From positions 7,572-71,571 of the forward strand of contig CAWIAU010000001.1 of the NCBI GenBank assembly GCA_963834265.1: DNA of 64,000 bases, given 5' to 3'. Numbering within the stretch: position 1 is the stretch's first letter; every line of letters starts with the position of its first letter. This document shows, piece after piece, positions 8,592 to 26,090 of the stretch. The stretch comes from an uncultured bacterium (lineage in GTDB: Bacteria; Patescibacteriota; Saccharimonadia; Saccharimonadales; 2-12-FULL-41-12). The notes under the pieces were generated by a model. That model had not been told where the DNA came from. It did not search any database and saw nothing but the letters and a program-made list of their open reading frames with translations. A program made the position numbers and the translations under genes.

Positions 8592-9554
8592 ATGAAAAAG
8601 TATTCTAATAAATGGCCTTACGTAGGTTTGGTTGTAGTGGCATGGGTTGCCTATATACTGCTCACAATATCCGCACCCGCCACACCGGACAATCCACAAA
8701 CAAGTAACTTAAGCACTGCTGCTCTGACGATTCTTACCCTGTCAATACTTGCGCCTTATTTGCTGACATGGCTTATCGCGGTAATCGGATGGTACAATTT
8801 CAGCTGGTTTGCGACAGATGCAGTGTACAAAAAAATTCCGGGGCACCAAGGCATTATCTATATATCACGTGGACTCGGAATATTAATTTTTGACCTTATC
8901 CTGGTGCCAATGTTCAGTGTGATACGTAGAATATGGGGCGATGACGAACCAACTGCGGCATTTATAACTATCTTGAGTAATTACTTCCATGTAGTTATTC
9001 CGCTGGTAGCCTTTAGCTTTATGTACATTGGATCGCTCAAATTAGCAGCAAGCGGACACTATGCATCAGCGATACGCATCAGAATATTGCCGGCATTGCT
9101 GGCAACAATTGTTTTTATTGCGCTATTTTGTCTCGCCGTTACAGGCAATACATCCAGACAAGTAGCTCACGGTGCCGGTCAATTTGCCAGTTTCTATATA
9201 TCCGATCCTCTAATAATTTTGACAATTATTATTCCTCTGGCTATAACATGGTTTTTGGGCCTTCAAACTGCCCTTAACACTGAACGATACATGCATTCTT
9301 TTTTGCAGCCTGTATGGCGAACTGCTATTATCCATTTATTCCATGGTTTACTGGCAATAGTTAGCAGTGCAATTATATTGCAAGCCATAACCGCTTTTGG
9401 TAACCACCAACTTCAACAAATCAGTTTTGTATTGCTGTTGGTAATCCTGTTTTTATTTATTTTTTTACAAGCTGCAGGATATTTCCTTATACGCAAAGGT
9501 GCTAAACAGCTGCGTAGTTTAATTAAAACCGGTACTCCTCATGAGATTGATTGA
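8592..9554 (+). CDS. polytopic membrane protein of unknown function
   Basis: 320 aa with about 8 hydrophobic helices. Its 3' end overlaps the downstream histidine kinase gene by 14 nt. Confidence 0.6.
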   Translation: MKKYSNKWPYVGLVVVAWVAYILLTISAPATPDNPQTSNLSTAALTILTLSILAPYLLTWLIAVIGWYNFSWFATDAVYKKIPGHQGIIYISRGLGILIFDLILVPMFSVIRRIWGDDEPTAAFITILSNYFHVVIPLVAFSFMYIGSLKLAASGHYASAIRIRILPALLATIVFIALFCLAVTGNTSRQVAHGAGQFASFYISDPLIILTIIIPLAITWFLGLQTALNTERYMHSFLQPVWRTAIIHLFHGLLAIVSSAIILQAITAFGNHQLQQISFVLLLVILFLFIFLQAAGYFLIRKGAKQLRSLIKTGTPHEID

Positions 9555-11346
9555 AAAAATTATTCTATTGTTTCTTGGCATTTCACTGCTGCCCCTGCTG
9601 CTTGTAAGTACAATATTTTATTCCAGCGTAAACATCTCGATGCGCAAACAAATAAATGAACATTTGAATAATATTGCTACAATTCAGGAGCACAGACTGA
9701 TCGAAATACGTAACCACAATCTTAGCCGATTATCTGATTTTACAAGCAGGATACATTTACGAAATCTTCTGAATACTTATACTTCCAATGCCGGGACGGC
9801 CCAAATAGAAATTACGGCAATTATTGTTGAAGCAAAAAGTCTGGGTAAAGACGTCAACCTAATTGCGGTTACTGACCCTAATGGTAAAGTCATTGCTTCA
9901 ACCGCACAGGAACATACAGCTACATTATTGCCTTTGAGTGAGTTATTCAAATCAGGCATTAAAGAAAATACTATTAAATTAACGGCGGATACAGAAACAA
10001 AAAATAATGTTTTCTATCTTAGTGGCCCGATCAAACACGCGGATAAAACATTGGGAGTAGTTATTATCGAGATTAATGCTAACGAGTTAACAAAGACTCT
10101 GGCCGATCACACCGGGTTCGGGCGGACAGGAGAAATTTATCTGGGCCAACGCCTGGACAACGGCCAGTTATCATTTTTAACACCGCGCCGTTTTGAAAAT
10201 CCTGAGTCGGGCCAAATTATTACCCAAACTAACGGTCCCATGTACAAAGCACTGACAAACCAAGAGGGTATTTTTCCGAATATAACAGATTACCGTAACC
10301 AAAAGGTAATCGCAACTACGAGAGCAATAGATGGTAGCGGTTGGGGGCTTGTAAGTAAAATTGATAGTTCCGAAGCTTTTCAACCACTCAAAAACCTCCG
10401 TAATGAGTTGATCATGTTGTTCTTTGTAAATTCCGTTATTGTTGTATTCGCGGCAATTGCCCTGGCCAGGAGGTTTACGCAACCGATACTCGAGATTGAT
10501 GAAGTTGCCGAAATAGCGAGCAGGGGTAAACTTGATAAACGTGTTGCCAGCACCTCGAAGGATGAAATCGGAAGCCTTGCACATACATTTAACAAAATGC
10601 TTGATAACATGGAGATTGTTAATAAAGCCAAGAATGACTTTGTATCGCTGGCTTCGCACCAGCTCAGGACACCGCTTACATCTATCAAGTGGTCTGCAGA
10701 ACTCTTAACAGCACCCAAGTCTAGCCTGAGCAAAACTAAGCAAAAGCAATATCTGCAGCAAATATATGACTCGAATGAAAGGATGATTGAGTTAGTAGAG
10801 TCGTTACTGAATGTTTCTAAAATCGATGTTGACAGTTTGCCATCCAAAAGATCATCCGTTGATCTGGCGGATAAGCTTGAGCAGGTACTCACGGATCTCA
10901 GCTCACAAATCCGGACCAGGGAAATCTCTATCAACAAAAAAATCGATGAGAAGATTGTACCAATCACGATTGATCCGAACTGGATACGTATAATCTTACA
11001 GAATTTAATTTCTAATGCTGTCCGCTACAGCGAGCCGAAGCAACAAGTATACATTAGTATAGAAAAAAAACAGACGCACGTACTCATCAAGGTCAAAGAT
11101 AACGGTTGCGGGATTCCTGCTTCTCAGCAAGATGTGATTTTCACGAAGTTCTTCCGGGCTGACAATGCCAAACGCGTTGAAAGCGAAGGCTCAGGAATCG
11201 GCCTCTATCTCACGAAAGCAATGATAGAACGTTCCGGCGGCACTATATGGTTTGAATCTGGTCAGAACAAAGGATCCACATTTTATGTTAAAATTCCTGT
11301 AGCGAATAAAAGCATGGGCGCAAAGGAGAGCAAACGACTTGAGTAA
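9541..11346 (+). CDS. sensor histidine kinase (extracellular sensor domain, HAMP, HisKA, HATPase_c)
   Basis: Two TM helices flank a sensor domain of about 270 aa. H-box SHQLRTPLTS, N-box LISNAVRYS, G-boxes DNGCGIP and GSGIGL. Confidence 0.9.
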   Translation: MRLIEKIILLFLGISLLPLLLVSTIFYSSVNISMRKQINEHLNNIATIQEHRLIEIRNHNLSRLSDFTSRIHLRNLLNTYTSNAGTAQIEITAIIVEAKSLGKDVNLIAVTDPNGKVIASTAQEHTATLLPLSELFKSGIKENTIKLTADTETKNNVFYLSGPIKHADKTLGVVIIEINANELTKTLADHTGFGRTGEIYLGQRLDNGQLSFLTPRRFENPESGQIITQTNGPMYKALTNQEGIFPNITDYRNQKVIATTRAIDGSGWGLVSKIDSSEAFQPLKNLRNELIMLFFVNSVIVVFAAIALARRFTQPILEIDEVAEIASRGKLDKRVASTSKDEIGSLAHTFNKMLDNMEIVNKAKNDFVSLASHQLRTPLTSIKWSAELLTAPKSSLSKTKQKQYLQQIYDSNERMIELVESLLNVSKIDVDSLPSKRSSVDLADKLEQVLTDLSSQIRTREISINKKIDEKIVPITIDPNWIRIILQNLISNAVRYSEPKQQVYISIEKKQTHVLIKVKDNGCGIPASQQDVIFTKFFRADNAKRVESEGSGIGLYLTKAMIERSGGTIWFESGQNKGSTFYVKIPVANKSMGAKESKRLE

Positions 11347-11719
11347 ACCGGCCAAAAAAATACTGATCGTTGAAGACGAAGAACCTTTGTCTAATATCCT
11401 TTGTGATCAACTAACCGGCGAGGGTTTCGATGTTGTCATCGCCCGCAACGGATCAAAGGGAGTGAATATGGCAATATCCGAGAAACCTGATCTGATTCTG
11501 CTGGATATACTACTACCTAAGAAAAGCGGTCTGACCGTAATCAAAGAACTCCACGAGCACAAGGAAACATCATCTATACCTGTCATTATGCTGACCAATC
11601 TGAGTGACACTGACAGCGTAAACGAATCCCTAAACTTTGAAGCATATGATTTTATGGTCAAATCCGACACCAAATTAAGTACTATTGTCGATGCTATCCA
11701 CACCAAATTAAGCGTGTAA
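11339..11719 (+). CDS. single-domain response regulator (CheY-like receiver)
   Basis: The TTG start overlaps the kinase gene end. KILIVEDEE ... DLILLDILLP ... K near the C-terminus; no output domain. Confidence 0.9.
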   Translation: MSKPAKKILIVEDEEPLSNILCDQLTGEGFDVVIARNGSKGVNMAISEKPDLILLDILLPKKSGLTVIKELHEHKETSSIPVIMLTNLSDTDSVNESLNFEAYDFMVKSDTKLSTIVDAIHTKLSV

Positions 11720-11768: not shown

Positions 11769-12371
11769 ATGAAAACCAGCATACGAACACTTAAAAATAC
11801 TTTACCGTATATTCTGTCTGTCGGCGGCTTCACCGGCTTATTATCGGCTTTCGTGCTGGCAGTTGAAAAGATAGCCATCATTAAAGACCCGGCATTCCAG
11901 CCATCATGTAATATCAACCCGATCCTGAGTTGCGGCTCTGTGATGATTACCGATCAGGCCGAAGCCTTCGGCTTCCCGAATCCGTTCCTCGGTATTGCCG
12001 GCTTCGCAGCGCTGACTTCAATAGGTCTGGCATTATTGGCCGGAGCTACTTTCAGGCGATGGTTCTGGTTGCTGATTCAGGCTGGCGTATTATTTGCTGT
12101 TGTATTTATCCATTGGTTGATGTTCCAGAGTATTTATAATATTGGTGCGCTCTGCCCATATTGTATGGTTGTCTGGTCTGTTACAATTCCAATTTTCTGG
12201 TATGTAACCTTGTATAATCTGCGCGAAAAAAATATAAGATCCCCCAAGGCTTTCAAAGGAATCTGTGCTTTTGTCCAGAAACATCACGGGGATATTCTGC
12301 TGGTTTGGTTTCTGATTATTATCGGCACCATCCTGGAACATTTCTGGTATTACTGGAAGACTGTACTCTAG
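11769..12371 (+). CDS. vitamin K epoxide reductase (VKOR) family protein
   Basis: Loop Cys pair C-x7-C (CNINPILSC) and the active-site CPYC in a TM helix; 4-5 TM helices. Confidence 0.85.
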   Translation: MKTSIRTLKNTLPYILSVGGFTGLLSAFVLAVEKIAIIKDPAFQPSCNINPILSCGSVMITDQAEAFGFPNPFLGIAGFAALTSIGLALLAGATFRRWFWLLIQAGVLFAVVFIHWLMFQSIYNIGALCPYCMVVWSVTIPIFWYVTLYNLREKNIRSPKAFKGICAFVQKHHGDILLVWFLIIIGTILEHFWYYWKTVL

Positions 12372-12940
12372 TTAGTCGAGTGGACTTTTCGCTCTGTCCG
12401 ATTGTTCCGGGTTTTGGCCAGTTTTTTCTGTCCGTAAAAGATACTGATAGCTCCCAGTGCAACTATGTAGTCCTTAAACGTTTCTCCCCAGTTCTCAGGT
12501 TTCAAAAAGAATTTTTCCGGCGAACTTTTGACTAATGCCTGAGCACTTTCTACTTCAAAGTTCAGAGCTGTTGTGCTGATTACGGCATACTTAAAGGCTT
12601 TTTCGTACAAGGCAGAAGTAACCTCTCCAACTTTTTTGCCCACTATCTGGCGCTTATATCCCACATACGCGCCCAACGCGCCAACTATCAGATGATCAAA
12701 GCTGGTGGCACTTGCATAAGCAACACCATGCAAATTATCAGTTATGCCGCTGGGTCGAACGTATACCACATCAGCAACAGTTGCAGCACCCAGAACCAAA
12801 GCAGTTCCTGCCTGCCCCATTGTCGGAAGCCAGCTTTCGGTATATTCCTGTGCGCCTGCGTCGAGGGGTCTGGTCTGCTCATATGCCAGAGGAGGGGCGG
12901 TCTCAATGACGAGCGGCTGGCCATCTAAAGCTATACTCAC
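12368..12940 (-). CDS. hypothetical protein (190 aa)
   Basis: Longest ORF in a stop-poor stretch, with a GTG start. A minus-strand TATAAT (12954-12949) lies 8 nt upstream, so the mRNA may be leaderless. No motif recognised. Confidence 0.45.
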   Translation of the reverse strand: MSIALDGQPLVIETAPPLAYEQTRPLDAGAQEYTESWLPTMGQAGTALVLGAATVADVVYVRPSGITDNLHGVAYASATSFDHLIVGALGAYVGYKRQIVGKKVGEVTSALYEKAFKYAVISTTALNFEVESAQALVKSSPEKFFLKPENWGETFKDYIVALGAISIFYGQKKLAKTRNNRTERKVHSTN

Positions 12941-12995: not shown

Positions 12996-13036
12996 AAAAA
13001 CTGAAATAAATAAGGCCCTCTCGCAAGGGGCCTTAT
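12996..13036 (-). terminator. intrinsic terminator of the small stress-protein gene
   Basis: A 9-bp stem ATAAGGCCC/GGGCCTTAT (13010-13018 / 13028-13036) is followed on the minus strand by TTATTTCAGTTTTT. Confidence 0.7.
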
Positions 13037-13301: not shown

Positions 13302-15020
13302 TTACTTTGGGGAAAAAGTATGGAATTTGGTTTTGAACCTTGAGGCCATGCTAAAAACTTCGTGTCGCCATTCGTAAAATGCATAGCCAAGCGCGGCAAT
13401 AACAGCTAGTGTCACAAGGAGCAACCTCGGATTATTCCCTACTGAGCCTGACGGAAGATCCCTGACCTGTGCAATCCCCGCCACACTACCGCCACCCGCA
13501 CTTTTCCGACAACGATTTGTTTCAGGGTTACGTTCCTGACCCTCATCGCAAGGAGTCAGAGAAGAAGCTGTTTGGATAATTGCACGGCAACGATTTGTTT
13601 CAGGGTTACGTTCCTGATCGGCCTTACACGGCACAAGTTCTGAATCAGACGCTCCGATTGAGCGACATCTGTTTGTTTCAGGGTTACGTTCCTGACCGAT
13701 TTTGCAGGCTGTCAGATTCAGCGCAGCTAGCTGTATTAACCGGCAACGATTGGTATCATGATTACGTTCCTGATCCTGACGGCAGGGTGCGAAGCTTACG
13801 ATATTGTTGCTGATGTCCTCTTCGTCGGGAGTATTAATCAGCATAGGAAGATTAGCATTCGCGGGAGTAGGCTGATTGGTATACTGCCATACCCCGTCAA
13901 TGAGCGCCCATGCATTGTTTTCTATTGGCTGCTCATAGCTCGCTGCCAAACTGACAGCTTCACCATTCGGTGCTACGAGCCGTACGCTGGCCGAACTATT
14001 AGGCAGCACCAAACCTGTCTGAGTATCAGAAAATGCCTGATATGCTCCTGACCCTATTATCTGATCGGGCAATGGGTATGATTTGGAGTAGTCAGGACCT
14101 GATTGTAGTATGTAGCCTTTCAAACTTATTGGCCGGTTGTTAGGATTGTATATTTCGATAAATTCGTTCCCCGCATCATAGCTGGTGGCATTTGGCAACA
14201 ATTCAGTGATATACAATGTGGCATTTTCGAGTGGGATAACATTGCAGTTTTCACCATCAGAACTCTCGTAACCGGCAGGGATGCTGGTCTGCAGATCATC
14301 GATATTAAAACAGAGATCAGCCTGACAATTGCCCGCTGCATCTTTCAGATACCCGGCCGGCAATTGTGTTTGTAGTCCATCAATATTTATACAGATATCT
14401 GTCTGTACTATTACTTCGTAGACACTACTGGAGACCAGTACTGGCACGGCAACCTGCCCGAAGTCATCCAGGTTATCATTAGTGTCTTTAAGCGTCGTCT
14501 CGCCAATGCTGACGCGCTGTAAAATGCCGGGGCTTACCGGATTGGCCGCAGCTGTACCTTCTGCAGTACCGCCTCCCCATCCTAATCTGTCAATTTCCAC
14601 ACCGCCGGCATCGAGCAAGCGAATATACCGGTCTTTGCCGGCAATCGAACCTGACGCAAAAGTAATATCGAAGACAGACGCCGGGTAATCAACTTTGAAT
14701 GCACTGCTCGCTGCAACCAGGTAGCCATGAGCCGGTAGCCAGAGTTTAGTATGAGCATCAGGAGCGATCAAACAGCCCAGATTTGCAGAATCTTCTGTCG
14801 TGGCGCCATATTTTAGACACCATCCGGTCGTATCAACCGCTGCCGGGCTGTTGTTGTAGACAGAGATGTATTCTTTATTTGTAAATCCTGTTGCCCCGAC
14901 CTGTAACTGGTAAATCACAGGATTGCCAGCTGCTTGAGCCACTTGAGAAACTAACATCAATAACCCGAGTACTGCGAATACTCCGCTCACCCCCAGCAAG
15001 CTTTTAATCATGCCGTTCAC
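13302..15020 (-). CDS. surface-anchored protein with two lamin-tail (LTD) domains and four Cys-bracketed repeats
   Basis: Signal peptide; LTD-like segments (YISVYNNSPAAVDTTGWCLKY; EFIEIYNPNNRPISLKGYIL); 4x C-x3-QERN(P/H)(E/D)TNRCR; C-terminal TM helix. Confidence 0.8.
   Translation of the reverse strand: MNGMIKSLLGVSGVFAVLGLLMLVSQVAQAAGNPVIYQLQVGATGFTNKEYISVYNNSPAAVDTTGWCLKYGATTEDSANLGCLIAPDAHTKLWLPAHGYLVAASSAFKVDYPASVFDITFASGSIAGKDRYIRLLDAGGVEIDRLGWGGGTAEGTAAANPVSPGILQRVSIGETTLKDTNDNLDDFGQVAVPVLVSSSVYEVIVQTDICINIDGLQTQLPAGYLKDAAGNCQADLCFNIDDLQTSIPAGYESSDGENCNVIPLENATLYITELLPNATSYDAGNEFIEIYNPNNRPISLKGYILQSGPDYSKSYPLPDQIIGSGAYQAFSDTQTGLVLPNSSASVRLVAPNGEAVSLAASYEQPIENNAWALIDGVWQYTNQPTPANANLPMLINTPDEEDISNNIVSFAPCRQDQERNHDTNRCRLIQLAALNLTACKIGQERNPETNRCRSIGASDSELVPCKADQERNPETNRCRAIIQTASSLTPCDEGQERNPETNRCRKSAGGGSVAGIAQVRDLPSGSVGNNPRLLLVTLAVIAALGYAFYEWRHEVFSMASRFKTKFHTFSPK
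13505..13790 (-). repeat. four tandem 75-78-bp coding repeats (core ACGATTTGTTTCAGGGTTACGTTCCTGA)
   Basis: Cores lie at 13512-13539, 13590-13617, about 13665-13695 and 13746-13773. They encode the QERNPETNRC modules of the LTD protein. Confidence 0.9.
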
Positions 15021-15032
15021 TATACTCTATGG

Positions 15033-16496
15033 TTATACTAATTCGCTAATGTTTTTTCCTGATCGGAAATTATATTTAGTTTTATAGTACAAATAAATGA
15101 TGGTGCTCAGACCCAAAACATAACTCGCAATCAGAAGATTACTACTGAATTTCATTTCCCCCGCGGCACCTGGGAAAGCAGCAATTTTCTCAATTATAAA
15201 TGTTGAATACGTTAGCAGTGCTGTGGCCGGCAGGCCAAAAATATGAGCCATGCCCGGTATCAGCAGGCTGCCAGCTCCGGCAATAAACACAAATAGCATT
15301 GCAAACGGAACTACCGGCAATACCAAAATATTAGCCAATAAAGCATACGGCGAGTATTGTCCGAAGACGTAAACAATAATCGGCAACGTCATGATTTGAG
15401 CGCTCAGAGTAGCTATGAATAATTCGCGAATAACGCCTGGCTTTCGATCGCCCCAAAAATAACGATGCAATAAAGGTGCCAGTAATAAAATGCCTGCAAA
15501 GGCGGCAAACGACAGATACCAGCCAATATCTCCCCAAATATAGGCCGGCCTGAACAGCAAGGTCGCAGCTGCCGCGAAAGACAAAAGTATAACCGGATGC
15601 AATTTACGCCCGTAGTACCACGCCAGTAGCCCCAGTCCCGCTACCAGGCCAGCTCGGGACATGCTGGGACTGAGCCCGGTAATTAACATAAATCCGGCAA
15701 TCATCATACCTCCGGCCAGTGTTGCCAGATATTTTGACACGCGACTCAGGATTCTTCGAGCAAACACTACAAGGATCATCAGATTATAGCCACTGGCTAC
15801 AACTACGTGCGTCAGGCCGGTTATGCGAATTTGCTCTTCGAGAGTCTCCGGCAACGCACTTTTCTGTCCCAGCAAATAGCCTGCACCCAGACTGACCTGC
15901 GGCTCCGGAATAGCACGCGCTATCCCGCCGGCAAACCAATCACGAAACTGCCGGCCGATATCCCCGGGGTGTGGTCTTGACACAGCCTCTACCTCAGCAC
16001 GGAACATCGAGGCCTGCAAATTACCGAATCCCTTCAGCAAAATTCCACTAAGCTTCACCTTATCACCTCTTTTTATATCAGACTTACCGAGTACACTTGT
16101 CCATACTTCACCGTCCAAATGCTTATTATTTATTTCAACGTTCCTGATGCGTATTCTCTGATCTACGCGCTCGCCGTAAGTAACGTCCTCTGTGACATTT
16201 CCGCTCAGGATTATCTGCTGACCATAATATGGCCGATACTCTGCGAAGTCCTGAACCACCATATTGCCGCGCGTTAAACCCGTTAACAATCCGGCCGCAA
16301 ATGCCAGACTCAAAAGTATTTTCGGACGCCTGAGCAATGCAATGAAAAGTAGCGAACCTACAACAATATACCACTCCGGACTGTCAAAAAAAGCAGATTT
16401 TATGATGAGACATAGTGCAGTACCGATAATAATTCCTAGTGATAATGCACAAATAAACCAAGAAATATGTGTTTTTTTAGTCAGCCAGTTTTTCAT
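15033..16496 (-). CDS. comEC: ComEC/Rec2 DNA-uptake channel, lacking the C-terminal metallo-beta-lactamase domain
   Basis: 487 aa with an N-terminal OB-fold-like region (DIKRGDKVKLSGIL) and a competence domain (ITGLTHVVVASGYNLMILV) with about 10 TM helices. The ORF ends right after the last TM helices. Confidence 0.85.
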   Translation of the reverse strand: MKNWLTKKTHISWFICALSLGIIIGTALCLIIKSAFFDSPEWYIVVGSLLFIALLRRPKILLSLAFAAGLLTGLTRGNMVVQDFAEYRPYYGQQIILSGNVTEDVTYGERVDQRIRIRNVEINNKHLDGEVWTSVLGKSDIKRGDKVKLSGILLKGFGNLQASMFRAEVEAVSRPHPGDIGRQFRDWFAGGIARAIPEPQVSLGAGYLLGQKSALPETLEEQIRITGLTHVVVASGYNLMILVVFARRILSRVSKYLATLAGGMMIAGFMLITGLSPSMSRAGLVAGLGLLAWYYGRKLHPVILLSFAAAATLLFRPAYIWGDIGWYLSFAAFAGILLLAPLLHRYFWGDRKPGVIRELFIATLSAQIMTLPIIVYVFGQYSPYALLANILVLPVVPFAMLFVFIAGAGSLLIPGMAHIFGLPATALLTYSTFIIEKIAAFPGAAGEMKFSSNLLIASYVLGLSTIIYLYYKTKYNFRSGKNISELV

Positions 16497-17224
16497 AAGA
16501 TAACCTGAGGAAGTTGTTGGTTGGGGCAGGTATCAAGTACCCGATGCATGGCATCGTGCTCGGCCTGGGTAATCCATAATGTGTATTTGGCTTTGACTGC
16601 GATCTGGCGGGCAATGTATTGGCAACGATACGGTTTGTTGGGTGGCAGCCATGTGGCGGCATCGCTATCGCTTTTTTTCTGATTGACAGGACCATCTACT
16701 GCCAGAAGATTCAATGGATCGTTTGCAAACTCCTGCCTGGTCGTGGCAGACAGTTGCTGAGCCCCCTTCTGCCAGGCATCAGATAGTGCAACGACATGAT
16801 CGATCTGGACATCATCGCTTGTATCCCGGCCCCGTACAAAGTTGATCCGATTACCGGTATAAGGATCATCCAGTAATCCACTGATTACTGTGCAGTCTGT
16901 TTCGGAAACAGTTTTGACCTCCGTCATATCGCGCCTGAGTATATGGTTGCGTATATCGCACGCGCCCAGCCGCTGCCAGTCATCATCAAACTGTGCCCTT
17001 TTGTAGTCTGTTCGCGGGGCACGTCCTTTGATAGCCAATTTGCCCAGAGCCTCCACGGCCGATCCTGGCAGCGGCACACCTGCCGTTTGCTCAGTATTGA
17101 CCGATTGCACATTGGTTGGCAGCGCCGGCATCCTGCTTTGCTGCCATGCTTCATAAGCCGCACCCGCACATATAGAAAATGTCACCAATAAAATTACTGC
17201 CAGCCGCCTGCGACGCTCAATCAT
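16493..17224 (-). CDS. secreted DUF1524 (GmrSD C-terminal type, His-Me finger) nuclease
   Basis: Signal peptide; VQIDHVVALSDAWQKGA ... FANDPLNLLAVDGPVNQKKSDSDAATWLPP. Its stop overlaps the comEC start by 4 nt. Confidence 0.8.
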   Translation of the reverse strand: MIERRRRLAVILLVTFSICAGAAYEAWQQSRMPALPTNVQSVNTEQTAGVPLPGSAVEALGKLAIKGRAPRTDYKRAQFDDDWQRLGACDIRNHILRRDMTEVKTVSETDCTVISGLLDDPYTGNRINFVRGRDTSDDVQIDHVVALSDAWQKGAQQLSATTRQEFANDPLNLLAVDGPVNQKKSDSDAATWLPPNKPYRCQYIARQIAVKAKYTLWITQAEHDAMHRVLDTCPNQQLPQVIL

Positions 17225-17227
17225 AAA

Positions 17228-17941
17228 TTATTTTCTTTTTCGATGTGGTACTTTCATACGAGGCAGTATGGCAAAGACTAACAGGAACGCATAGATTACC
17301 GCAAACCCGCACATGATGCTGGTCACACCGGCCAGGCTTTCAGGACTGAGCGTATTAACAACGAGAGTGGGTACGATAAACACACAATATCCGAGTATCA
17401 GCAGATGTAGATTATTCCGTATACGCTTAGACGCTGTTACGGCAAAATAAGCTGACAAAATCAGAGTAAGAAGCAATAAGAAATAATAATAGAGATAGAA
17501 ATATCCGCCCATTTTTCCCGAAAGATGAAAAATAATATAATTGCCTCCACAAACATGAGGATCAAAAGCCTGCGCTGCTAATGCGAAAAAAGCTATCCAG
17601 AAGGCTGCAGCAGCGTAGCCAATCCATTTGAGAACAGGCCATCCACATCTTGAAATTATCTGCATCAGGTGCAGGCCGAGTGCCGGCAGAACAGTAATAG
17701 CGGCAAAGCCGGCACGCGACCAGGGATCGATACCCCCATCCACTTGCCCGCAGACGTTATACTCTGCCAGTTGAAAAAGGCCCAGACAGAACAACATCGC
17801 CACCACCAAGCGCGTGACTACCGTTAACTTATAGCGAAAGACAACATATATCAGAAGACTAATCTCAATGATAAAGGTCGCCAGCATTATGGGCGGCGAG
17901 AAACAATAAAATGTCGTACCGCGTCGGCGGTTTCTGTTCAT
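17228..17941 (-). CDS. 7-TM membrane protein of unknown function, first gene of the comEC operon
   Basis: 237 aa with about 7 hydrophobic helices; 3-nt gap to the nuclease gene. Confidence 0.6.
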   Translation of the reverse strand: MNRNRRRGTTFYCFSPPIMLATFIIEISLLIYVVFRYKLTVVTRLVVAMLFCLGLFQLAEYNVCGQVDGGIDPWSRAGFAAITVLPALGLHLMQIISRCGWPVLKWIGYAAAAFWIAFFALAAQAFDPHVCGGNYIIFHLSGKMGGYFYLYYYFLLLLTLILSAYFAVTASKRIRNNLHLLILGYCVFIVPTLVVNTLSPESLAGVTSIMCGFAVIYAFLLVFAILPRMKVPHRKRK

Positions 17942-18502: not shown

Positions 18503-18578
18503 GGGGGTGTAGCTCAGTGGTTAGAGCAGTCGGCTCATAACCGATTGGTCCCTGGTTCAAGTCCAGGCACCCCCACCA
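18503..18578 (+). tRNA. tRNA-Met (anticodon CAT), elongator type; tRNA-Ile2 (lysidine) not excluded
   Basis: 7-bp acceptor stem GGGGGTG/CACCCCC, D arm GCTC-AGTGGTTA-GAGC, anticodon loop CTCATAA, T arm CCTGG-TTCAAGT-CCAGG, encoded ACCA tail. The G1-C72 pair argues against an initiator. Confidence 0.9.
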
Positions 18579-18890: not shown

Positions 18891-20123
18891 TTAGAATCTT
18901 ATGAAGAAGCTTCTGATCAGCTTCAGGTAGAACTGAATAATCTTTTGCTGTGACGGAGGAGCGCTGGCGCCTGCGACATAGACAATACAGTCATTCTGGC
19001 TTACAAACGCAGGATTAGAGAAGTTCTTCCAGCCATTGTTGTAACATTGTTCAACTTTGGTCGGAGAATTTTTGACCGTGATCTTGTATGGTGCTGCAGC
19101 GCCATTGCTCCAGGCACTTGTGTTGCCGTCAGCATCGATAGCTCGTACTCGCACATAATATGTGCCTTCCGGAGTACCTGCAGTAGATATCTCCGAGGAA
19201 GTCAGGGTCGGACCACTGTCATAAACGGATGCCGTGTAAGCAGGGTCAGCAGAAAATGCCTGATATTGATATTTAACCGGCCCGTTCCCTGTGGTAGTTG
19301 CATCAGTCCAGTCAATTTTATTTAACTGTGATGTAGTAACGACTGAGTTATTGGCCGGCGAAGTAATAGCGGGCGCAGAAACTGTAGGCGCGTTAAGCTC
19401 AAAGTTAAAAGTAGTGGTATTGCCGCCGGTGGTAATACTAAATGCATCTACATTACCATTAAATGAGCTCCAGCCACTTCCGGCTTTGAATACAACAGCT
19501 CCCAGAGTTGGGCTGGGATGTACGCCTACATTAGGAAAGAGTGTTTTGATTTGATTCCATGTACAAGGGACTGCTTGAGTACAGGTGTTATTAAATTTAG
19601 TTGCGCCCTGACTGCTGAACCACCACTTGGCATTGCCGCCATTTATAGCGTCCCAGGTTGTCCAGGTTCCTTGCGGTACAGTTCCTCCGTTGTTTTGATA
19701 TGGCTCATAAACAATCCGGCCCTGGAAGGTAGTGTCCGCATCAGTTACGTCTTTGTCCACATTAAACTGCAATGCAATTGCCGTGGCATTGCTTGGGTTA
19801 GCAGGTGCCTGGTACGTTGCATAACTAAGCGCACTAATGTCTGCCAGCTTTGTCCCTGCAAATGCTGCCTTTGCTAATATGTGCCCTTCGCTAGTACTAG
19901 CCGTGGTAAGCTGTGCGCTACCCGATCCCAGCGGAGGCGTACCGGGTCCATTTACAAATACTCCGGTTTCGGGAGTGTTTGTTTGATCGTTGATAAATGC
20001 CCAGCCCTGTTCGTGGCCCGGATAGACCGTTACTGTGTTAATTGCCGCAAATGCTATTGCCGACGTTCCGAGTACTACCGATAAACCTGCGCCAATACCT
20101 ACTAATAACTTTTTTATAGACAT
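18891..20123 (-). CDS. secreted protein of unknown function with an Ig/FN3-like C-terminal module
   Basis: 410 aa; signal peptide (AIAFA|A); Thr/Asn/Gly-rich beta-type sequence; conserved Cys pairs (NNTCTQAVPC, QCYNNGW...DC). Confidence 0.7.
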   Translation of the reverse strand: MSIKKLLVGIGAGLSVVLGTSAIAFAAINTVTVYPGHEQGWAFINDQTNTPETGVFVNGPGTPPLGSGSAQLTTASTSEGHILAKAAFAGTKLADISALSYATYQAPANPSNATAIALQFNVDKDVTDADTTFQGRIVYEPYQNNGGTVPQGTWTTWDAINGGNAKWWFSSQGATKFNNTCTQAVPCTWNQIKTLFPNVGVHPSPTLGAVVFKAGSGWSSFNGNVDAFSITTGGNTTTFNFELNAPTVSAPAITSPANNSVVTTSQLNKIDWTDATTTGNGPVKYQYQAFSADPAYTASVYDSGPTLTSSEISTAGTPEGTYYVRVRAIDADGNTSAWSNGAAAPYKITVKNSPTKVEQCYNNGWKNFSNPAFVSQNDCIVYVAGASAPPSQQKIIQFYLKLIRSFFIRF

Positions 20124-21308: not shown

Positions 21309-24300
21309 TTAATAACCTACCGATCCGGCTTTACAGTTGTTTGGGTTACCGCGTCCGTCATTCGGCAGATAGTTCAGCGGATTAAGCGTCCCCTGGTTCA
21401 GGCCTTTCGGTCCAGGACCTTCCGGAGGATCCTGCGCATTGCCCGAGGGGGTGTCACTCCTACTATTTTGGATGTTGAAGTGCAAATGAACCGCATAATC
21501 TCCGCCTGTATTACCCATCCTGCCAACCAGCTGACCTCTGACTACGATTTTACCCACCTCAATGCCAGGCTGGAACGAGGCCAGGTGCGCATAGAGAGTA
21601 TAGTAGAAGCGCGTGGGATTACCGGCAACCGGGTGCTTAATATAAACCGCATTGCCATAACCCTCGAAGGGTGCTGTGTTACTGGCTTTTGCAACCACCG
21701 TACCGACTGCCGCCGCACGGATACCCGGCGCGGATTTACCTGCGGCACCCACGTCGATTCCGGAATGCAGATGGTCACCACGATCGTCTCTCCAGCATGA
21801 TGACAAAGGATAATCGGCTGATACCGGCCAGCTCCACTTTACACCGCCCACCACACGCGACGGAAGATTGGTCCCTGCTCCGGGACTATCAGGCAACGGA
21901 GTCGTGCCGGGATTGGCCGGTAGATTGCCGGCATCGCCGTTGCTAGCCGAATTTCTGAACTTTTTCCATGCTGCAAGAACTTTTGCATTATAGCCGGATG
22001 TAAAACCGGGATCGCGCCGGCAAGCTGACTTGTTACCAGAGTTATAGCCACAGGCTGCTTTACGGACTTGTTCTTCGCTCAGACGTTCGCTGGGATTTGA
22101 AGTTTTGTCTATATAGTTTGCCACAGTGAACACGGCATCGGACCATTTCTGATCATCCCACGTTGACGGGAAGGTATCTACCGCATTTGTACCGGTGCCA
22201 CCATCTCCCGGATATAAGAGTCTGCCGCCAAATTTATTGCTATTCCATGTGCCTTCTTTCATCTGGCCGGGGCCTTTGCATACCGGTGATGCTCCGCCAC
22301 AATTGTTGTTAACTTTTGCTTTGAATGCAATTGGGTCTTTTACCAGAGAACCGTCCATTGATTCGACCGAGATAATTGCAAGGATCAGTGCAGGATCCAC
22401 GCCCATACGGGCGCCGGCAGTACAGGCATAATCGGCATACATTTTGGTCTGGGCACGGGATAATGGGGAAATTGTTGTTTTAATATCATCGCATACTACC
22501 GGAATATGGGCGGCTCCGGCTCCGGTGGACGGAACAGGTGTTGTCGGAGGGCCACAATCGGCTTGCCCAGGCGCGACACCACCCGTAGTAGGGACAGGAC
22601 AGCCCCCGCCGGTTGCATTATTGAGGAATATTATTGAAAATGTGGCGGGTTCGTCTTTTTGCAGAGTCACGGTACGTTTAATTTTTTGAACGCCGTTTTC
22701 GGTAAATATTTTCGTATCGGCATCGGGATTAGCCGAAAATCTTTTACTCATTGTATAGCCGCTCGGTATGGTGGCGTTTATCTCCCATTGCTTGGCATAA
22801 TCATTGTTGCTGGCGAATGCAACGGGACATGAACTGAAGCCAATTGATGCAGGACCTGTCGCGGTCTCGGCCTTTGTGTTGCCTCTGCTTGGTGTACAGT
22901 TATCGTTGGGACGGCCGGTGCTAACCATCTCGATGGATATATTCTTGAAAGGCTGGTCTTTGAACGTTCCTTTATTATCCGTATCCACCCATGTTTCTAC
23001 GGTAACCCTGCCTGCCTTATTAGAGCTGGGAACAGGACTGGTATTGTTAGTTCCTCCGCCCGGAGTAGACGAGACTGGTACCGGATCACAGGTTATGGAA
23101 CCTGCACCCTGAACCAGATATATTTCGATGCGTGTAACTTTATTCTGGTTAACTTTGAAGTGATATTTGGAGTTGTCGCAGCCGGCTTTATGCGGCGAAT
23201 TATCGGCTTCTCTATATCCTGCTCTCTTGACGAGACTCAGCTGGTAAGTTTTGGCACCGCCGTCCTGTGCCACCGGACAGTTTACAAAGCTAACTCTACC
23301 TTTGATTCCATTACTGCCATCAGATCCTGAAGTTCTGTTGCGCGGATCACATTGGAACTGCGGAGTGTCTGCGGCGCCAATCGATTTGGTATGTACTTCA
23401 ACCTCACCCATCAGTGTTTTTTTGCCTCCAGTAGTATCGTATGTGCAAACAACAATCGCACCTTTGCCGTTGGTTGGATTTGCTACACCTGCAGTATTTT
23501 TGTTGGTATCACAAAGCTGAGCAACAGCCGGGGTAGTCGGATTAGCGGGGGGTGGCGCATTAGATCCGGGTGGGTTCGGTACCGGCCCCGGACTTGGATT
23601 ATTCGGATTTTCAACACTTCCGTTGCTACCGATCAACAAGAAGCTGACTTCGGTTTCCAGATTTTTGCGAAGTGTGACATCACGGTAGACTATATTGCCA
23701 TTGACGACTGCCCCAACGCCATTGTTGTATGCTGAATCAAGCGTGAAGCCAGCCGGAACATTCATGGTGACCCGATATTTCTTGGCGTGGTTATCGTTTG
23801 TCTGCTCGGCTACCGGACATTCTGTGAAACGAATCAATCCGAAGCCATTTGGTCCGCTGGCCCTGTCGGCATTGGTCAGGCCGGCAGTGGTTGACTTGGT
23901 CTTTCCGTCGCTAAGTGTATGCTTGGTTCCGTAGCACTGTTTAGTCGGTCCTACGCCAATGTTTTCGGTTGAGATGTATACATTGCCAACACGGTTATCG
24001 ATGCTTGTGTTGATGACTTGTCCGGCTTTATCGTGGGCATAAACCCCGACTTTGATTTTGCCGACATTGAGAGACGGCGTGGTGGGAGAAGCAGGAGGAG
24101 AACCGCCGGTTGGAGGCGGAGGAGGTGGAAGTGGCGAAGGATTAGCTGATCCCGATGCGGGAATTACTATGGTAGCGGAATTCGAGAGGTTATTGTCATT
24201 AGTAGCTTTGAATACCAATGTATGACGATTACCGTCAGCAATATTGACTCCGCCAAAGTCCAGGCTGGTACCACGATGCGAAGGATGCTTAGAAAAGTCA

Positions 24301-26090
24301 CTGCGGATTCCCCTTTGAGTACCGTCGATTGTAACTGTTACATCCCGTACGAAGTCCAAGGGGAAATTATTCTGTGTCTGATAGCCGAAAACATCTACTT
24401 CAGCCCCCGTTGCCGAGAGTCCTGTCACGGCTATTAGCGGACCGTCACCCGGAGCATGGTTGTAGTTAATTACCGTTGGTGAAGGCGGTGGTGGTGCAGG
24501 CAAGCCAGGATCAGGGCCGGGAGTACCTCCCTGCGAGAAAGAATCCCAGACCACCTGGCCGCCCGGTGTAGTAATCACTAGGTTGCCATCGTCTCTCATT
24601 ACCAACCGGTCGGCACCAGTCCCATTTGTATTGCTGGCCCAGGTACCAGTACCATTAGACCTGTACTTTACAAGGTTTCCGTCACCCTGCATGTGCAAAT
24701 AAGTTGACCCGTCACCGTGAGTATAATTGCACCAAAGCCCGTGGCCGCGGTCATAAATACACATATTGCTGTCACCTTGGAAGATAAATTTGAACCGGCC
24801 GTTGCTGGAAGTTAATGAGTCGCCATTATTCATAACGATGTCATTGCCGGCGTAAAGTACGTTGCCGAGTGAGTTGGAACTAGGAGTAGGTGATCCAGGC
24901 GGGCCAGCTGGGGGTGGTGCTGGCGCCGGTGCTTTGGATTCATCATATATAAAGCGGGCGTTTACATTCTGATTCCACAGAAGCGTTACAGTACGGCTGT
25001 GTGTGCCTGCTATAGTGTAGCCCGGCGGCGTGTCACCGGCTGTAACGGTATAGGTAGCATCATTGCCCCCGATATTGCTCACCGGACAACCACGAAAATT
25101 AACTGCGCCTAAACCATTAGTAACACCGGAATTACCGCTATCACATGCACTAAGGGATGGGTGACTTATAGATATAGGAACCCCGCTGATGCGCTTTCCC
25201 TGCTTGTCTTCGGCAAATACATCAAGGTCGCCGTGTCGGCAACCATTACAGGTATGGGCTTCGGCCTTTGGAGTTATCAGGTTACCCAAGTTGTTTGATG
25301 CCCCACGAACCGTGCTGGAAACGGTGGAGGCTATGTCAGTTCCTGACTTATTGGCCGAATCAGCAAGTTTCTCAAATATGCCCTGGTCCGGTGATAAGAA
25401 AGCACGGGCCGGAGGATCCAGTGTAAAACTAGATACGGCCACTTCTTTGGCCTCACCAGCTGCCACAAAGTTCTTTGGCTGTGCATAGAAAGGTATTGTA
25501 GTTGAACTTATATTCGAACCCTGTCCGATTACCCCGCCAAGTTTAGCAGTTGCGTTAATCGTATGTTGGCCCGGCTTAAGGTTATGCATGGGGAACATAT
25601 TGACTCCATTGACACCACCACTAAAGATATACGGATATACTCCCCCGTTCTTAAACGTTGAATTGGCGTTGATGATCTTGGACATAACAACGCGGCCATC
25701 CATACTTACCACAATGTTAATAGGGCTGGTAATGTCAGATGCTGCCCTAAACTCTGTTCTGATCTCAAAATCAGTATGCATTGTTGTGCCAGAAGTCGGT
25801 GAAGTAATCACAAACTGGCTTCCGGCACTACCGACAAATTGTTGGACGGCCAGGTAGCTGCCAACCCCTGTAGCACCGACCATTGCAACAGAAACAGTTG
25901 ATATACCGATCTTAGTAGCTAATGTTCCGGTAACGAATTTCTTACTAACGGCCACAAAAGCTGAAGAGGATTTGAGCTTAAACATCAAACTAATCAGTAA
26001 ACCTAAGACAAGCCCAATGATTGGCACAGATCTTAATTTTTTCCAACCTTTTGCAACACTGATTTTCATGTTTTTTCTCAAAACTTTCAA
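21309..26090 (-). CDS. 1593-aa envelope protein: bulb-type lectin, four beta-sandwich repeats, lytic transglycosylase-like domain and M23 peptidase
   Basis: N-terminal TM helix. B-lectin-like segment (FIFQGDSNMCIY...MQGDGNLVKY...MRDDGNLVITT). Four modules of about 130 aa share the motif F..CPV and are separated by Pro-rich linkers. SLT-like segment (ILAIISVESMDGS ... GPGQM). M23 motifs (HSGIDVGA ... HLHFNI). Confidence 0.9.
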   Translation of the reverse strand: MKVLRKNMKISVAKGWKKLRSVPIIGLVLGLLISLMFKLKSSSAFVAVSKKFVTGTLATKIGISTVSVAMVGATGVGSYLAVQQFVGSAGSQFVITSPTSGTTMHTDFEIRTEFRAASDITSPINIVVSMDGRVVMSKIINANSTFKNGGVYPYIFSGGVNGVNMFPMHNLKPGQHTINATAKLGGVIGQGSNISSTTIPFYAQPKNFVAAGEAKEVAVSSFTLDPPARAFLSPDQGIFEKLADSANKSGTDIASTVSSTVRGASNNLGNLITPKAEAHTCNGCRHGDLDVFAEDKQGKRISGVPISISHPSLSACDSGNSGVTNGLGAVNFRGCPVSNIGGNDATYTVTAGDTPPGYTIAGTHSRTVTLLWNQNVNARFIYDESKAPAPAPPPAGPPGSPTPSSNSLGNVLYAGNDIVMNNGDSLTSSNGRFKFIFQGDSNMCIYDRGHGLWCNYTHGDGSTYLHMQGDGNLVKYRSNGTGTWASNTNGTGADRLVMRDDGNLVITTPGGQVVWDSFSQGGTPGPDPGLPAPPPPSPTVINYNHAPGDGPLIAVTGLSATGAEVDVFGYQTQNNFPLDFVRDVTVTIDGTQRGIRSDFSKHPSHRGTSLDFGGVNIADGNRHTLVFKATNDNNLSNSATIVIPASGSANPSPLPPPPPPTGGSPPASPTTPSLNVGKIKVGVYAHDKAGQVINTSIDNRVGNVYISTENIGVGPTKQCYGTKHTLSDGKTKSTTAGLTNADRASGPNGFGLIRFTECPVAEQTNDNHAKKYRVTMNVPAGFTLDSAYNNGVGAVVNGNIVYRDVTLRKNLETEVSFLLIGSNGSVENPNNPSPGPVPNPPGSNAPPPANPTTPAVAQLCDTNKNTAGVANPTNGKGAIVVCTYDTTGGKKTLMGEVEVHTKSIGAADTPQFQCDPRNRTSGSDGSNGIKGRVSFVNCPVAQDGGAKTYQLSLVKRAGYREADNSPHKAGCDNSKYHFKVNQNKVTRIEIYLVQGAGSITCDPVPVSSTPGGGTNNTSPVPSSNKAGRVTVETWVDTDNKGTFKDQPFKNISIEMVSTGRPNDNCTPSRGNTKAETATGPASIGFSSCPVAFASNNDYAKQWEINATIPSGYTMSKRFSANPDADTKIFTENGVQKIKRTVTLQKDEPATFSIIFLNNATGGGCPVPTTGGVAPGQADCGPPTTPVPSTGAGAAHIPVVCDDIKTTISPLSRAQTKMYADYACTAGARMGVDPALILAIISVESMDGSLVKDPIAFKAKVNNNCGGASPVCKGPGQMKEGTWNSNKFGGRLLYPGDGGTGTNAVDTFPSTWDDQKWSDAVFTVANYIDKTSNPSERLSEEQVRKAACGYNSGNKSACRRDPGFTSGYNAKVLAAWKKFRNSASNGDAGNLPANPGTTPLPDSPGAGTNLPSRVVGGVKWSWPVSADYPLSSCWRDDRGDHLHSGIDVGAAGKSAPGIRAAAVGTVVAKASNTAPFEGYGNAVYIKHPVAGNPTRFYYTLYAHLASFQPGIEVGKIVVRGQLVGRMGNTGGDYAVHLHFNIQNSRSDTPSGNAQDPPEGPGPKGLNQGTLNPLNYLPNDGRGNPNNCKAGSVGY

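Follow-up and report, generated by a model that had tools for sequence, protein, structure and literature searches.

A candidate competence locus of Saccharimonadales in which a DUF1524 nuclease gene overlaps comEC

A 64,000-nucleotide (nt) stretch of a Saccharimonadales genome (GenBank assembly GCA_963834265.1; contig CAWIAU010000001.1, positions 7,572 to 71,571; hereafter, the window) carries four co-oriented minus-strand genes, which encode a protein with seven hydrophobic segments (the 7-TM protein; TM, transmembrane), a nuclease of the DUF1524 family, the DNA channel protein ComEC, and a surface protein with two lamin-tail domains (LTDs). The last three genes (hereafter, the triad) occur together in about one third of Saccharimonadia, and this arrangement is more than chance. 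We tentatively read the locus as a clade-specific competence operon, in which a surface-tethered DUF1524 nuclease would process incoming DNA for a ComEC that lacks the metallo-beta-lactamase (MBL) nuclease domain; we give this reading a little less than an even chance. The gene order and the domains are clear, the triad is conserved, and the catalytic motif of the nuclease is intact. The triad appears to be undescribed, although a nuclease-less ComEC is itself already known. In the literature searched, we found neither the triad, nor the comEC-yebC-LTD-ruvC block of other Saccharimonadia described below, nor any link of DUF1524 or LTD proteins to ComEC.

Retention of the DUF1524-comEC-LTD triad

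The list of open reading frames (ORFs) places the four genes at 13302 to 17941, with the two short gaps and the one overlap described in the first-pass annotation of this DNA. The 7-TM gene and the DUF1524 gene are separated by 3 nt (17228 versus 17224), and the stop codon of the DUF1524 gene overlaps the comEC start codon by 4 nt (ATGA, read directly from the sequence: GTTATCTTATGAAAAAC). The LTD gene begins 12 nt after comEC if a GTG start codon is used, or 21 nt after it with an ATG codon at 15011, and the deposited product (P0241; 569 amino acids [aa]) matches the ATG start.

The neighborhood was surveyed with comEC as the anchor in one genome per GTDB species, with annotation by phmmer (80 loci, all from Saccharimonadia). 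A DUF1524 gene lies upstream of comEC in 24 of the 71 informative loci; 22 of these loci show an overlap or up to 88 nt between the two genes, and the remaining two have 379 and 1163 nt. Of 73 informative loci, 65 have a same-strand LTD gene downstream of comEC. In the triad layout, comEC comes immediately after the DUF1524 gene and is usually followed at once by the LTD gene; most other loci show the order comEC-yebC-LTD, often followed by ruvC. In a quick neighbor-joining tree of ComEC, the triad loci cluster together with the window locus among them, and ComEC identity within this clade is approximately 45 to 57%. The surroundings of the triad are poorly shared: among 19 strict triad loci, flanking families are common to at most 5 of 19 loci upstream (DivIC, whose gene lies immediately 5' of the DUF1524 gene in these five) and at most 2 of 17 downstream. 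The triad therefore looks like a unit that has been retained amid changing surroundings.

A metagenome sample that was independent of the species survey and anchored on the LTD-protein motif RNPETNRCR yielded 27 loci with sufficient upstream sequence. Ten of them carry the triad, nine have comEC-yebC-LTD, and one has comEC in another position (in all, 20 of 27 loci have comEC ahead of the LTD gene); four have yebC-LTD without comEC in reach, and three have neither gene. Among the nontriad loci of this sample, 45 of 53 have ruvC within 900 nt downstream of the LTD gene; none of the 10 triad loci does. Conservation of the nuclease-comEC adjacency, a test set in the first-pass annotation, is thus a matter of clade: the adjacency recurs in both samples while the flanking genes turn over, and it is absent from approximately two thirds of Saccharimonadia.

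It is also missing in the only genetically tested species, Southlakia epibionticum. The com locus of strain ML1 (Wang et al. 2023; PMC10633639) consists of comEC (SEML1_0777), yebC (SEML1_0776), the LTD gene (SEML1_0775), and ruvC (SEML1_0774). This species belongs to the same class as the window organism, and the two share a ComEC without an MBL domain (DUF4131 plus Competence in S. epibionticum), a same-strand downstream gene for a protein with two LTDs and Cys loops resembling those of tumor necrosis factor receptors (TNFR), and a DUF1524 His-Me nuclease, which stands alone in S. epibionticum (SEML1_0519). They differ in that S. epibionticum has yebC between comEC and the LTD gene, then ruvC, and its DUF1524 gene approximately 245 kb away, whereas in the window the DUF1524 gene overlaps comEC, the LTD gene comes directly next, and neither yebC nor ruvC is present in the 64 kb.

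The comEC-yebC-LTD-ruvC block occurs in most Saccharimonadia, typically with ruvC approximately 15 nt after the LTD gene (e.g., L052:6001-10592, L096, L097, L155, L160, and L161), which is an odd placement for a surface-protein gene, embedded within a recombination operon. Three loci (L135, L142, and L151) carry yebC-ruvC as a separate divergent operon just upstream of DUF1524-comEC-LTD. For some close LTD orthologs, the gene lies away from any comEC, in an LTD-IMPase-ruvCAB(-recA-recX) block; one such run (L084:107-4675) reads LTD-IMPase-ruvC-ruvA-ruvB-...-recA-recX. The gene of approximately 240 aa between comEC and the LTD gene in nontriad loci was considered as a diverged nuclease or 7-TM gene and proved to encode YebC. 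Likewise, candidate pilins or nucleases upstream of comEC in nontriad loci turned out to be RimK, DUF192, a hydrolase, and 6-phosphogluconolactonase.

A ComEC without a nuclease domain

The 487-aa ComEC matches the Pfam Competence domain (PF03772; E = 8.4e-44; residues 208 to 469, positions 15090 to 15875) and the NCBIfam model TIGR00360 (E = 2.3e-18). Its layout comprises N-terminal TM helices, a probable OB-fold region, and the Competence channel domain. The DUF4131 model (PF13567) is matched by 28 of 30 full-length homologs (50 to 75% identical) and gave no match to the window protein at E <= 1. Lactamase_B was absent from the window protein and from these 30 homologs even at E <= 1, which bears out the earlier description of a 487-aa ComEC ending without an MBL nuclease. 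The best 120 homologs are all approximately 485 aa long, with DUF4131 and Competence and without a lactamase domain. Because these homologs and the 30-member alignment agree, the lack of a nuclease domain is the norm of the class and not a truncation. A frameshifted or split comEC was rejected, given the uniform length of the homologs and the start of the next gene 12 to 21 nt past the stop codon. By homology, this ComEC is predicted to import single-stranded DNA.

The missing domain had been presented as a peculiarity of the locus, and this view does not hold. In addition to its absence from all 120 closest homologs, nearly all ComECs of the candidate phyla radiation (CPR) lack the MBL domain (Meheust 2019), and the DUF4131-plus-Competence ("DC") profile is among the most abundant ComEC profiles (Pimentel and Zhang 2018). 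CPR- and Helicobacter-type ComECs (the "DC" and "C" profiles) resemble the window protein in having a channel without a nuclease, together with an OB fold that is probable in the window protein, and no dedicated nuclease neighbor has been reported for them in the literature searched. Which enzyme removes the nontransported strand when ComEC has no MBL domain, as in Helicobacter pylori and essentially all CPR bacteria, is described as an open question. Natural transformation of S. epibionticum depends on a ComEC of this type (Wang et al. 2023; PMC10633639), and the com genes of this species make no contribution to fitness (PMC10633639). The latter result contradicts, for S. epibionticum, the first-pass proposal of a core nucleotide-scavenging system.

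Regular expressions and Pfam searches of the larger ORFs revealed no second comEC, stand-alone MBL gene, or ComEA gene in the window. No ORF of the window bears an HxHxDH motif or an HhH-like motif. The earlier statement that ComEA is not seen in the window stands to this extent; its corollary, that the LTD protein takes over as the receptor, is poorly supported (see below).

A predicted membrane-tethered His-Me-finger nuclease

The 243-aa protein encoded upstream of comEC matches GmrSD_C/DUF1524 (PF07510; E = 1.6e-23; 83.6 bits against a cutoff of 23; residues 91 to 228). In an alignment of 32 homologs, D142 H143, N168 D169, N181, D186, D188, W192, and four Cys residues are invariant, and the identity of the nuclease across the class (approximately 60%) is higher than that of ComEC. 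The motifs quoted in the first-pass annotation are present and the catalytic motif is intact, in agreement with a His-Me nuclease that overlaps the comEC start and is predicted to act on the outer side of the membrane.

Hydropathy analysis indicated a single hydrophobic segment, at the N terminus, where RRRR precedes a helix of approximately 20 residues and a variable linker of approximately 30 residues. No conserved small-x-small cleavage site follows the helix in the alignment, and the positions there are often F or Y. The AlphaFold2 (AF2) model (mean predicted local distance difference test score [pLDDT], 77) has a continuous helix at residues 2 to 30 and a disordered linker at residues 33 to 47. 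These features suggest that the helix is likely an uncleaved signal anchor, which would make the protein a type II membrane-tethered ecto-enzyme, probably with disulfides.

The catalytic domain is shared with the type IV restriction enzymes GmrSD, BrxU, and SspE, which are cytoplasmic and carry an N-terminal DUF262 NTPase domain. The window protein, in contrast, consists of the C-terminal domain only, placed behind a membrane helix and with conserved Cys residues, and has no significant match in PADLOC. A GmrSD-like defense role was rejected on the grounds of the missing DUF262 domain, the predicted extracytoplasmic topology, and a best PADLOC E value of 0.0016. The S. epibionticum homolog SEML1_0519 has been classed with Vvn-type His-Me endonucleases (table in PMC10633639).

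An acidic surface protein with two lamin-tail domains

The product of the gene downstream of comEC contains two stretches matching LTD (PF00932; E = 1.6e-20) and one hydrophobic segment at each end. It is organized as a signal peptide, two LTDs, two CxNIDGLQ repeats, four Cys loops, a TM helix, YEWR, and a basic tail. The four 15-residue loops (CxxxQERNPETNRCR in the window protein, positions 13506 to 13784) are TNFR-like and near-invariant, as CxxGQERNPETNRCR, in the LTD orthologs examined. The C-terminal TM helix (13374 to 13430) is Gly-rich and is followed by a conserved (Y/W)EWR motif and the short tail. The Cys loops, the Gly-rich helix, and the (Y/W)EWR motif are covered by no Pfam family. 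Thus, the two-LTD, surface-anchored protein of the first-pass annotation was recovered, and its sequence predicts a C-terminally anchored, acidic surface protein, presumably coexpressed with comEC.

The role assigned to it, that of a DNA receptor replacing ComEA, fared less well, and the protein is probably not a simple DNA receptor. In its AF2 model (pLDDT, 79), two confidently predicted beta-sandwiches and four hairpins are accompanied by helices at residues 528 to 547 and 549 to 565. The best PDB matches of this model in Foldseek were the Ig folds of lamins (template modeling score, 0.62 to 0.73); only such lamin-type folds were matched, and no nucleic-acid-binding fold. ComEA presents an HhH domain on a membrane-anchored protein, whereas Pfam detected no HhH domain in the LTD protein. 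The ectodomain is strongly acidic, with a net charge of -26 (median, -25 over 62 orthologs). No nuclease domain was detected by Pfam in the protein or its best 120 homologs, one of which has an additional TNFR_nem match. In this respect it differs from ExeM, Xds, and NucH, whose polypeptides also contain OB and EEP nuclease domains; its Cys-loop repeats are a further difference. Points of resemblance are the LTD, an envelope location, a signal peptide, a hydrophobic anchor at the C terminus with basic residues after it, and a putative connection with DNA handling at the membrane.

The S. epibionticum counterpart, SEML1_0775, is flagged as a member of a core and Patescibacteria-enriched family and received the transposon sequencing (Tn-seq) calls nonessential, essential, and essential (NE/ES/ES), with insertions falling from 30 to 1 (PMC10633639). 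The comEC gene and yebC, which lies just upstream of SEML1_0775, scored NE in the same study (PMC10633639). Because of these NE scores, the role of SEML1_0775 is not limited to ComEC-dependent uptake, and a polar effect is unlikely. The gene goes unmentioned in the text of Wang et al. 2023 (PMC10633639). Together with a linkage of the LTD gene to ruvC that is, in most genomes, at least as tight as that to comEC, these results weaken the receptor assignment. The survey also brings out an undiscussed family: a Patescibacteria-enriched, fitness-essential LTD/Cys-loop surface protein encoded between DNA-uptake and recombination genes.

A proposed trans-acting nuclease for ComEC and competing explanations

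We propose that the operon, in the form (divIC)-7TM-DUF1524-comEC-LTD, may be the competence (DNA-uptake) locus of this Saccharimonadales bacterium. The N-terminal helix and flexible linker of approximately 30 residues would fix the DUF1524 enzyme to the outside of the cytoplasmic membrane, where it would process extracellular double-stranded DNA beside the ComEC channel. There it could cut the DNA and/or degrade the nontransported strand, as do EndA of Streptococcus pneumoniae or NucA of Bacillus subtilis, and so provide in trans what canonical ComEC has in cis. An EndA-like action in trans is plausible by analogy and from the sequence features of the enzyme; we infer its membrane tethering, its nuclease activity, and its physical or functional coupling to ComEC.

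In S. pneumoniae, whose ComEC MBL domain is probably inactive, EndA degrades the nontransported strand. EndA is a membrane-bound extracytoplasmic His-Me-finger nuclease, as the window enzyme is by prediction only, and its role is experimentally shown, whereas that of the window nuclease is a proposal. To our knowledge, endA is not encoded beside comEC. The two enzymes also differ in family: EndA is an Endonuclease_NS protein with a DRGH motif and the window enzyme a GmrSD_C protein, and they fall into His-Me groups 5 and 3, respectively (PMC5714182).

The comE operon of B. subtilis consists of comEA, comEB, and comEC, and the membrane nuclease NucA of this species makes DNA ends for uptake. 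The likeness to the window locus is that of a comEC operon including envelope proteins that handle incoming DNA, a role that is proposed for the window proteins. The window cluster differs in lacking ComEA (HhH) and ComEB, with the DUF1524 and LTD proteins as partners instead; moreover, B. subtilis ComEC bears its own active MBL nuclease.

Several observations weigh against a dedicated nuclease partner of ComEC. Since the adjacency is restricted to roughly one clade, one or a few rearrangements may explain it, and no nuclease gene adjoins comEC in approximately two thirds of Saccharimonadia, where DUF1524 lies elsewhere. Sequence and profile searches and Foldseek comparisons of the nuclease against PDB gave no significant match. 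Secreted nucleases can also antagonize transformation, as does Dns of Vibrio cholerae. DUF1524 carries neither the core nor the Patescibacteria-enriched flag in S. epibionticum (PMC10633639); because it is unflagged, yet nearly all CPR ComECs lack the MBL domain, it cannot be a general CPR solution. If the nuclease link fails, what is left is an ordinary TM7 competence gene with two envelope neighbors.

Stand-alone DUF1524 genes are very abundant (at least 8000; 8000 of 8000 scored candidates at E <= 1e-5), and in many Saccharimonadia they lie away from comEC (e.g., at locus L001 and as SEML1_0519). The enzyme may accordingly be a general surface or extracellular DNase for phosphate or nucleotide salvage, biofilm, or host interaction that is merely cotranscribed with comEC and has no role in strand selection, a possibility that we consider somewhat unlikely. 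Acquiring nutrients and controlling biofilms are common functions of extracellular nucleases (ExeM paper), and CPR bacteria lack nucleotide synthesis (Meheust 2019; PMC10633639). The S. epibionticum copy, SEML1_0519, is dispensable for growth (PMC10633639), which is compatible with such an accessory enzyme and at the same time speaks against a large contribution to nutrition in this species. A general DNase is harder to reconcile with the tight overlap of the stop codon of its gene with the comEC start, with the persistence of the triad despite flank turnover, and with the predicted membrane anchor, which would retain the enzyme at the cell surface. Rather improbable, in our view, is the inheritance of the gene order without functional coupling, whereby one ancestral rearrangement fixed the triad and a compact genome produces overlaps by default. 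Against this stand the ComEC divergence within the clade, which implies that a neutral adjacency would have had to last for long, the poor conservation of the genes on both flanks in the same genomes, and the fact that the three envelope genes remained together when yebC and ruvC left the block. Its merits are that most triad loci fall within one part of the ComEC tree, that genes all along the window often overlap or are separated by very few nucleotides, and that the LTD gene is equally tightly linked in other clades to ruvC, a gene of unrelated cytoplasmic function (45 of 53 loci).

The full model of the first-pass annotation, in which the nuclease degrades one strand and the LTD protein is the ComEA-replacing DNA receptor of a core nucleotide-scavenging machine, is very improbable, the least likely of the readings considered. 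ComEA is not annotated in the S. epibionticum genome tables, in keeping with the lack of HhH motifs in the window, and the LTD gene follows comEC in most loci of both samples. In addition, some membrane-bound nucleases contain an LTD; one of them, ExeM, has a lower in vitro activity when its LTD is deleted (ExeM paper). The acidic ectodomain, however, is unlike that of DNA receptors, and the fold comparison favored lamin-type Ig folds alone. SEML1_0775 is essential while comEC and yebC are not, the com genes are unnecessary for fitness, and some close LTD orthologs sit beside ruvCAB without a nearby comEC. A modified, tripartite import machine is only marginally better placed and remains quite doubtful: here the DUF1524 ecto-nuclease would degrade the strand, the LTD/Cys-loop protein would capture or hand over the DNA, and the LTD protein would be essential because of an additional role that does not involve ComEC. 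If this were true, the two functions visibly missing from CPR ComEC systems would come from partners encoded with comEC, DUF1524 would be a second, independently recruited "EndA," and the LTD protein would also take up nucleic acid or other host material apart from ComEC.

The proposal of a competence operon with a nuclease acting in trans thus offers a specific, conserved candidate for the missing DNA-cutting step, short of proof. It is directly testable because, in S. epibionticum, SEML1_0519 is nonessential, gene replacement works, and a transformation assay with a comEC deletion mutant exists.

Other features of the locus and its surroundings

The features of the locus are listed in Table 1. 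The 237-aa 7-TM protein had no match in Pfam, NCBIfam, or PADLOC. Its homologs occur near comEC (within approximately 6 kb) in only 2 of the 80 loci, approximately 3.4 kb downstream (L018:10873-11622 and L059:10913-11647; E, approximately 1e-63), and the comEC loci of that clade have no nearby LTD gene. The 7-TM gene is also found in another assembly bearing an identical nuclease. It does not belong to the conserved part of the cluster. The transcription unit may begin with the DivIC gene, 20 nt ahead of the 7-TM gene. A consensus scan indicated a promoter-like TTGCCG-18-TATAAT upstream of the DivIC gene (18452 to 18423, minus strand), and a hairpin found by the same kind of scan is likely, on weak evidence, the end of the unit. 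Homologs of the nuclease, ComEC, and the LTD protein all come from Candidatus Saccharimonadales/Saccharimonadia (TM7), and the identical proteins are encoded on a contig of 720 kb.

Table 1. Features of the comEC locus and adjoining elements in the window
Feature	Position	Strand	Evidence
DivIC/FtsB-like septum protein, 149 aa	17962..18411	-	Pfam PF04977, E = 3.6e-10
7-hydrophobic-segment protein, 237 aa	17228..17941	-	Hydropathy; no family match
Predicted membrane-tethered extracytoplasmic His-Me-finger nuclease (DUF1524/GmrSD_C), 243 aa	16493..17224	-	PF07510
Nuclease N-terminal RRRR and hydrophobic helix, residues 8-26	17147..17203	-	Hydropathy, alignment, AF2
GmrSD_C (DUF1524) catalytic domain, residues 91-228	16541..16954	-	Pfam, invariant columns; D-H dyad at 16796-16801
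ATGA overlap, nuclease stop/comEC start (putative translational coupling)	16493..16496	-	Sequence
ComEC/Rec2 DNA channel, 487 aa	15033..16496	-	PF03772, TIGR00360; no MBL nuclease domain
Two-LTD surface protein, 572 aa (569 aa from ATG at 15011)	13302..15020	-	PF00932, hydropathy, AF2
Terminator-like hairpin and T-run 3' of the LTD gene	13016..13029	-	Consensus scan only; weak

Overlaps and very short gaps are frequent across the window (e.g., the 8-nt overlap at 11339 to 11346). This overlap joins the genes for a histidine kinase (601 aa) and a response regulator (126 aa) just past the cluster (9541 to 11719, plus strand), and similar two-component pairs are also found near the triad elsewhere (e.g., locus L085). 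A VKOR homolog (DsbB-like disulfide-bond oxidoreductase; 11769 to 12371, plus strand) is encoded approximately 0.9 kb past the LTD gene on the opposite strand and could serve the oxidative folding of the Cys-rich nuclease and LTD protein; locus L151 likewise has a VKOR gene on the strand opposite to the LTD gene, at a distance of 17 nt. A divergent tRNA-Met gene (18503 to 18578, plus strand) adjoins the DivIC gene upstream.

The cluster is flanked by two minus-strand genes without family assignment, encoding a 190-aa protein without hydrophobic segments (12368 to 12940) and a 410-aa protein with an N-terminal signal-like segment (18891 to 20123). Farther away, a 1593-aa protein (21309 to 26090, minus strand) combines a C-terminal M23 peptidase domain with a B-lectin-like segment and could be a cell-wall-attacking or host-interaction protein of an epibiont. 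Two proteins of 722 and 589 aa (44942 to 47110 and 47907 to 49676, both on the minus strand), which have CarboxypepD_reg-like domains and little else that is recognizable, are likely surface proteins.

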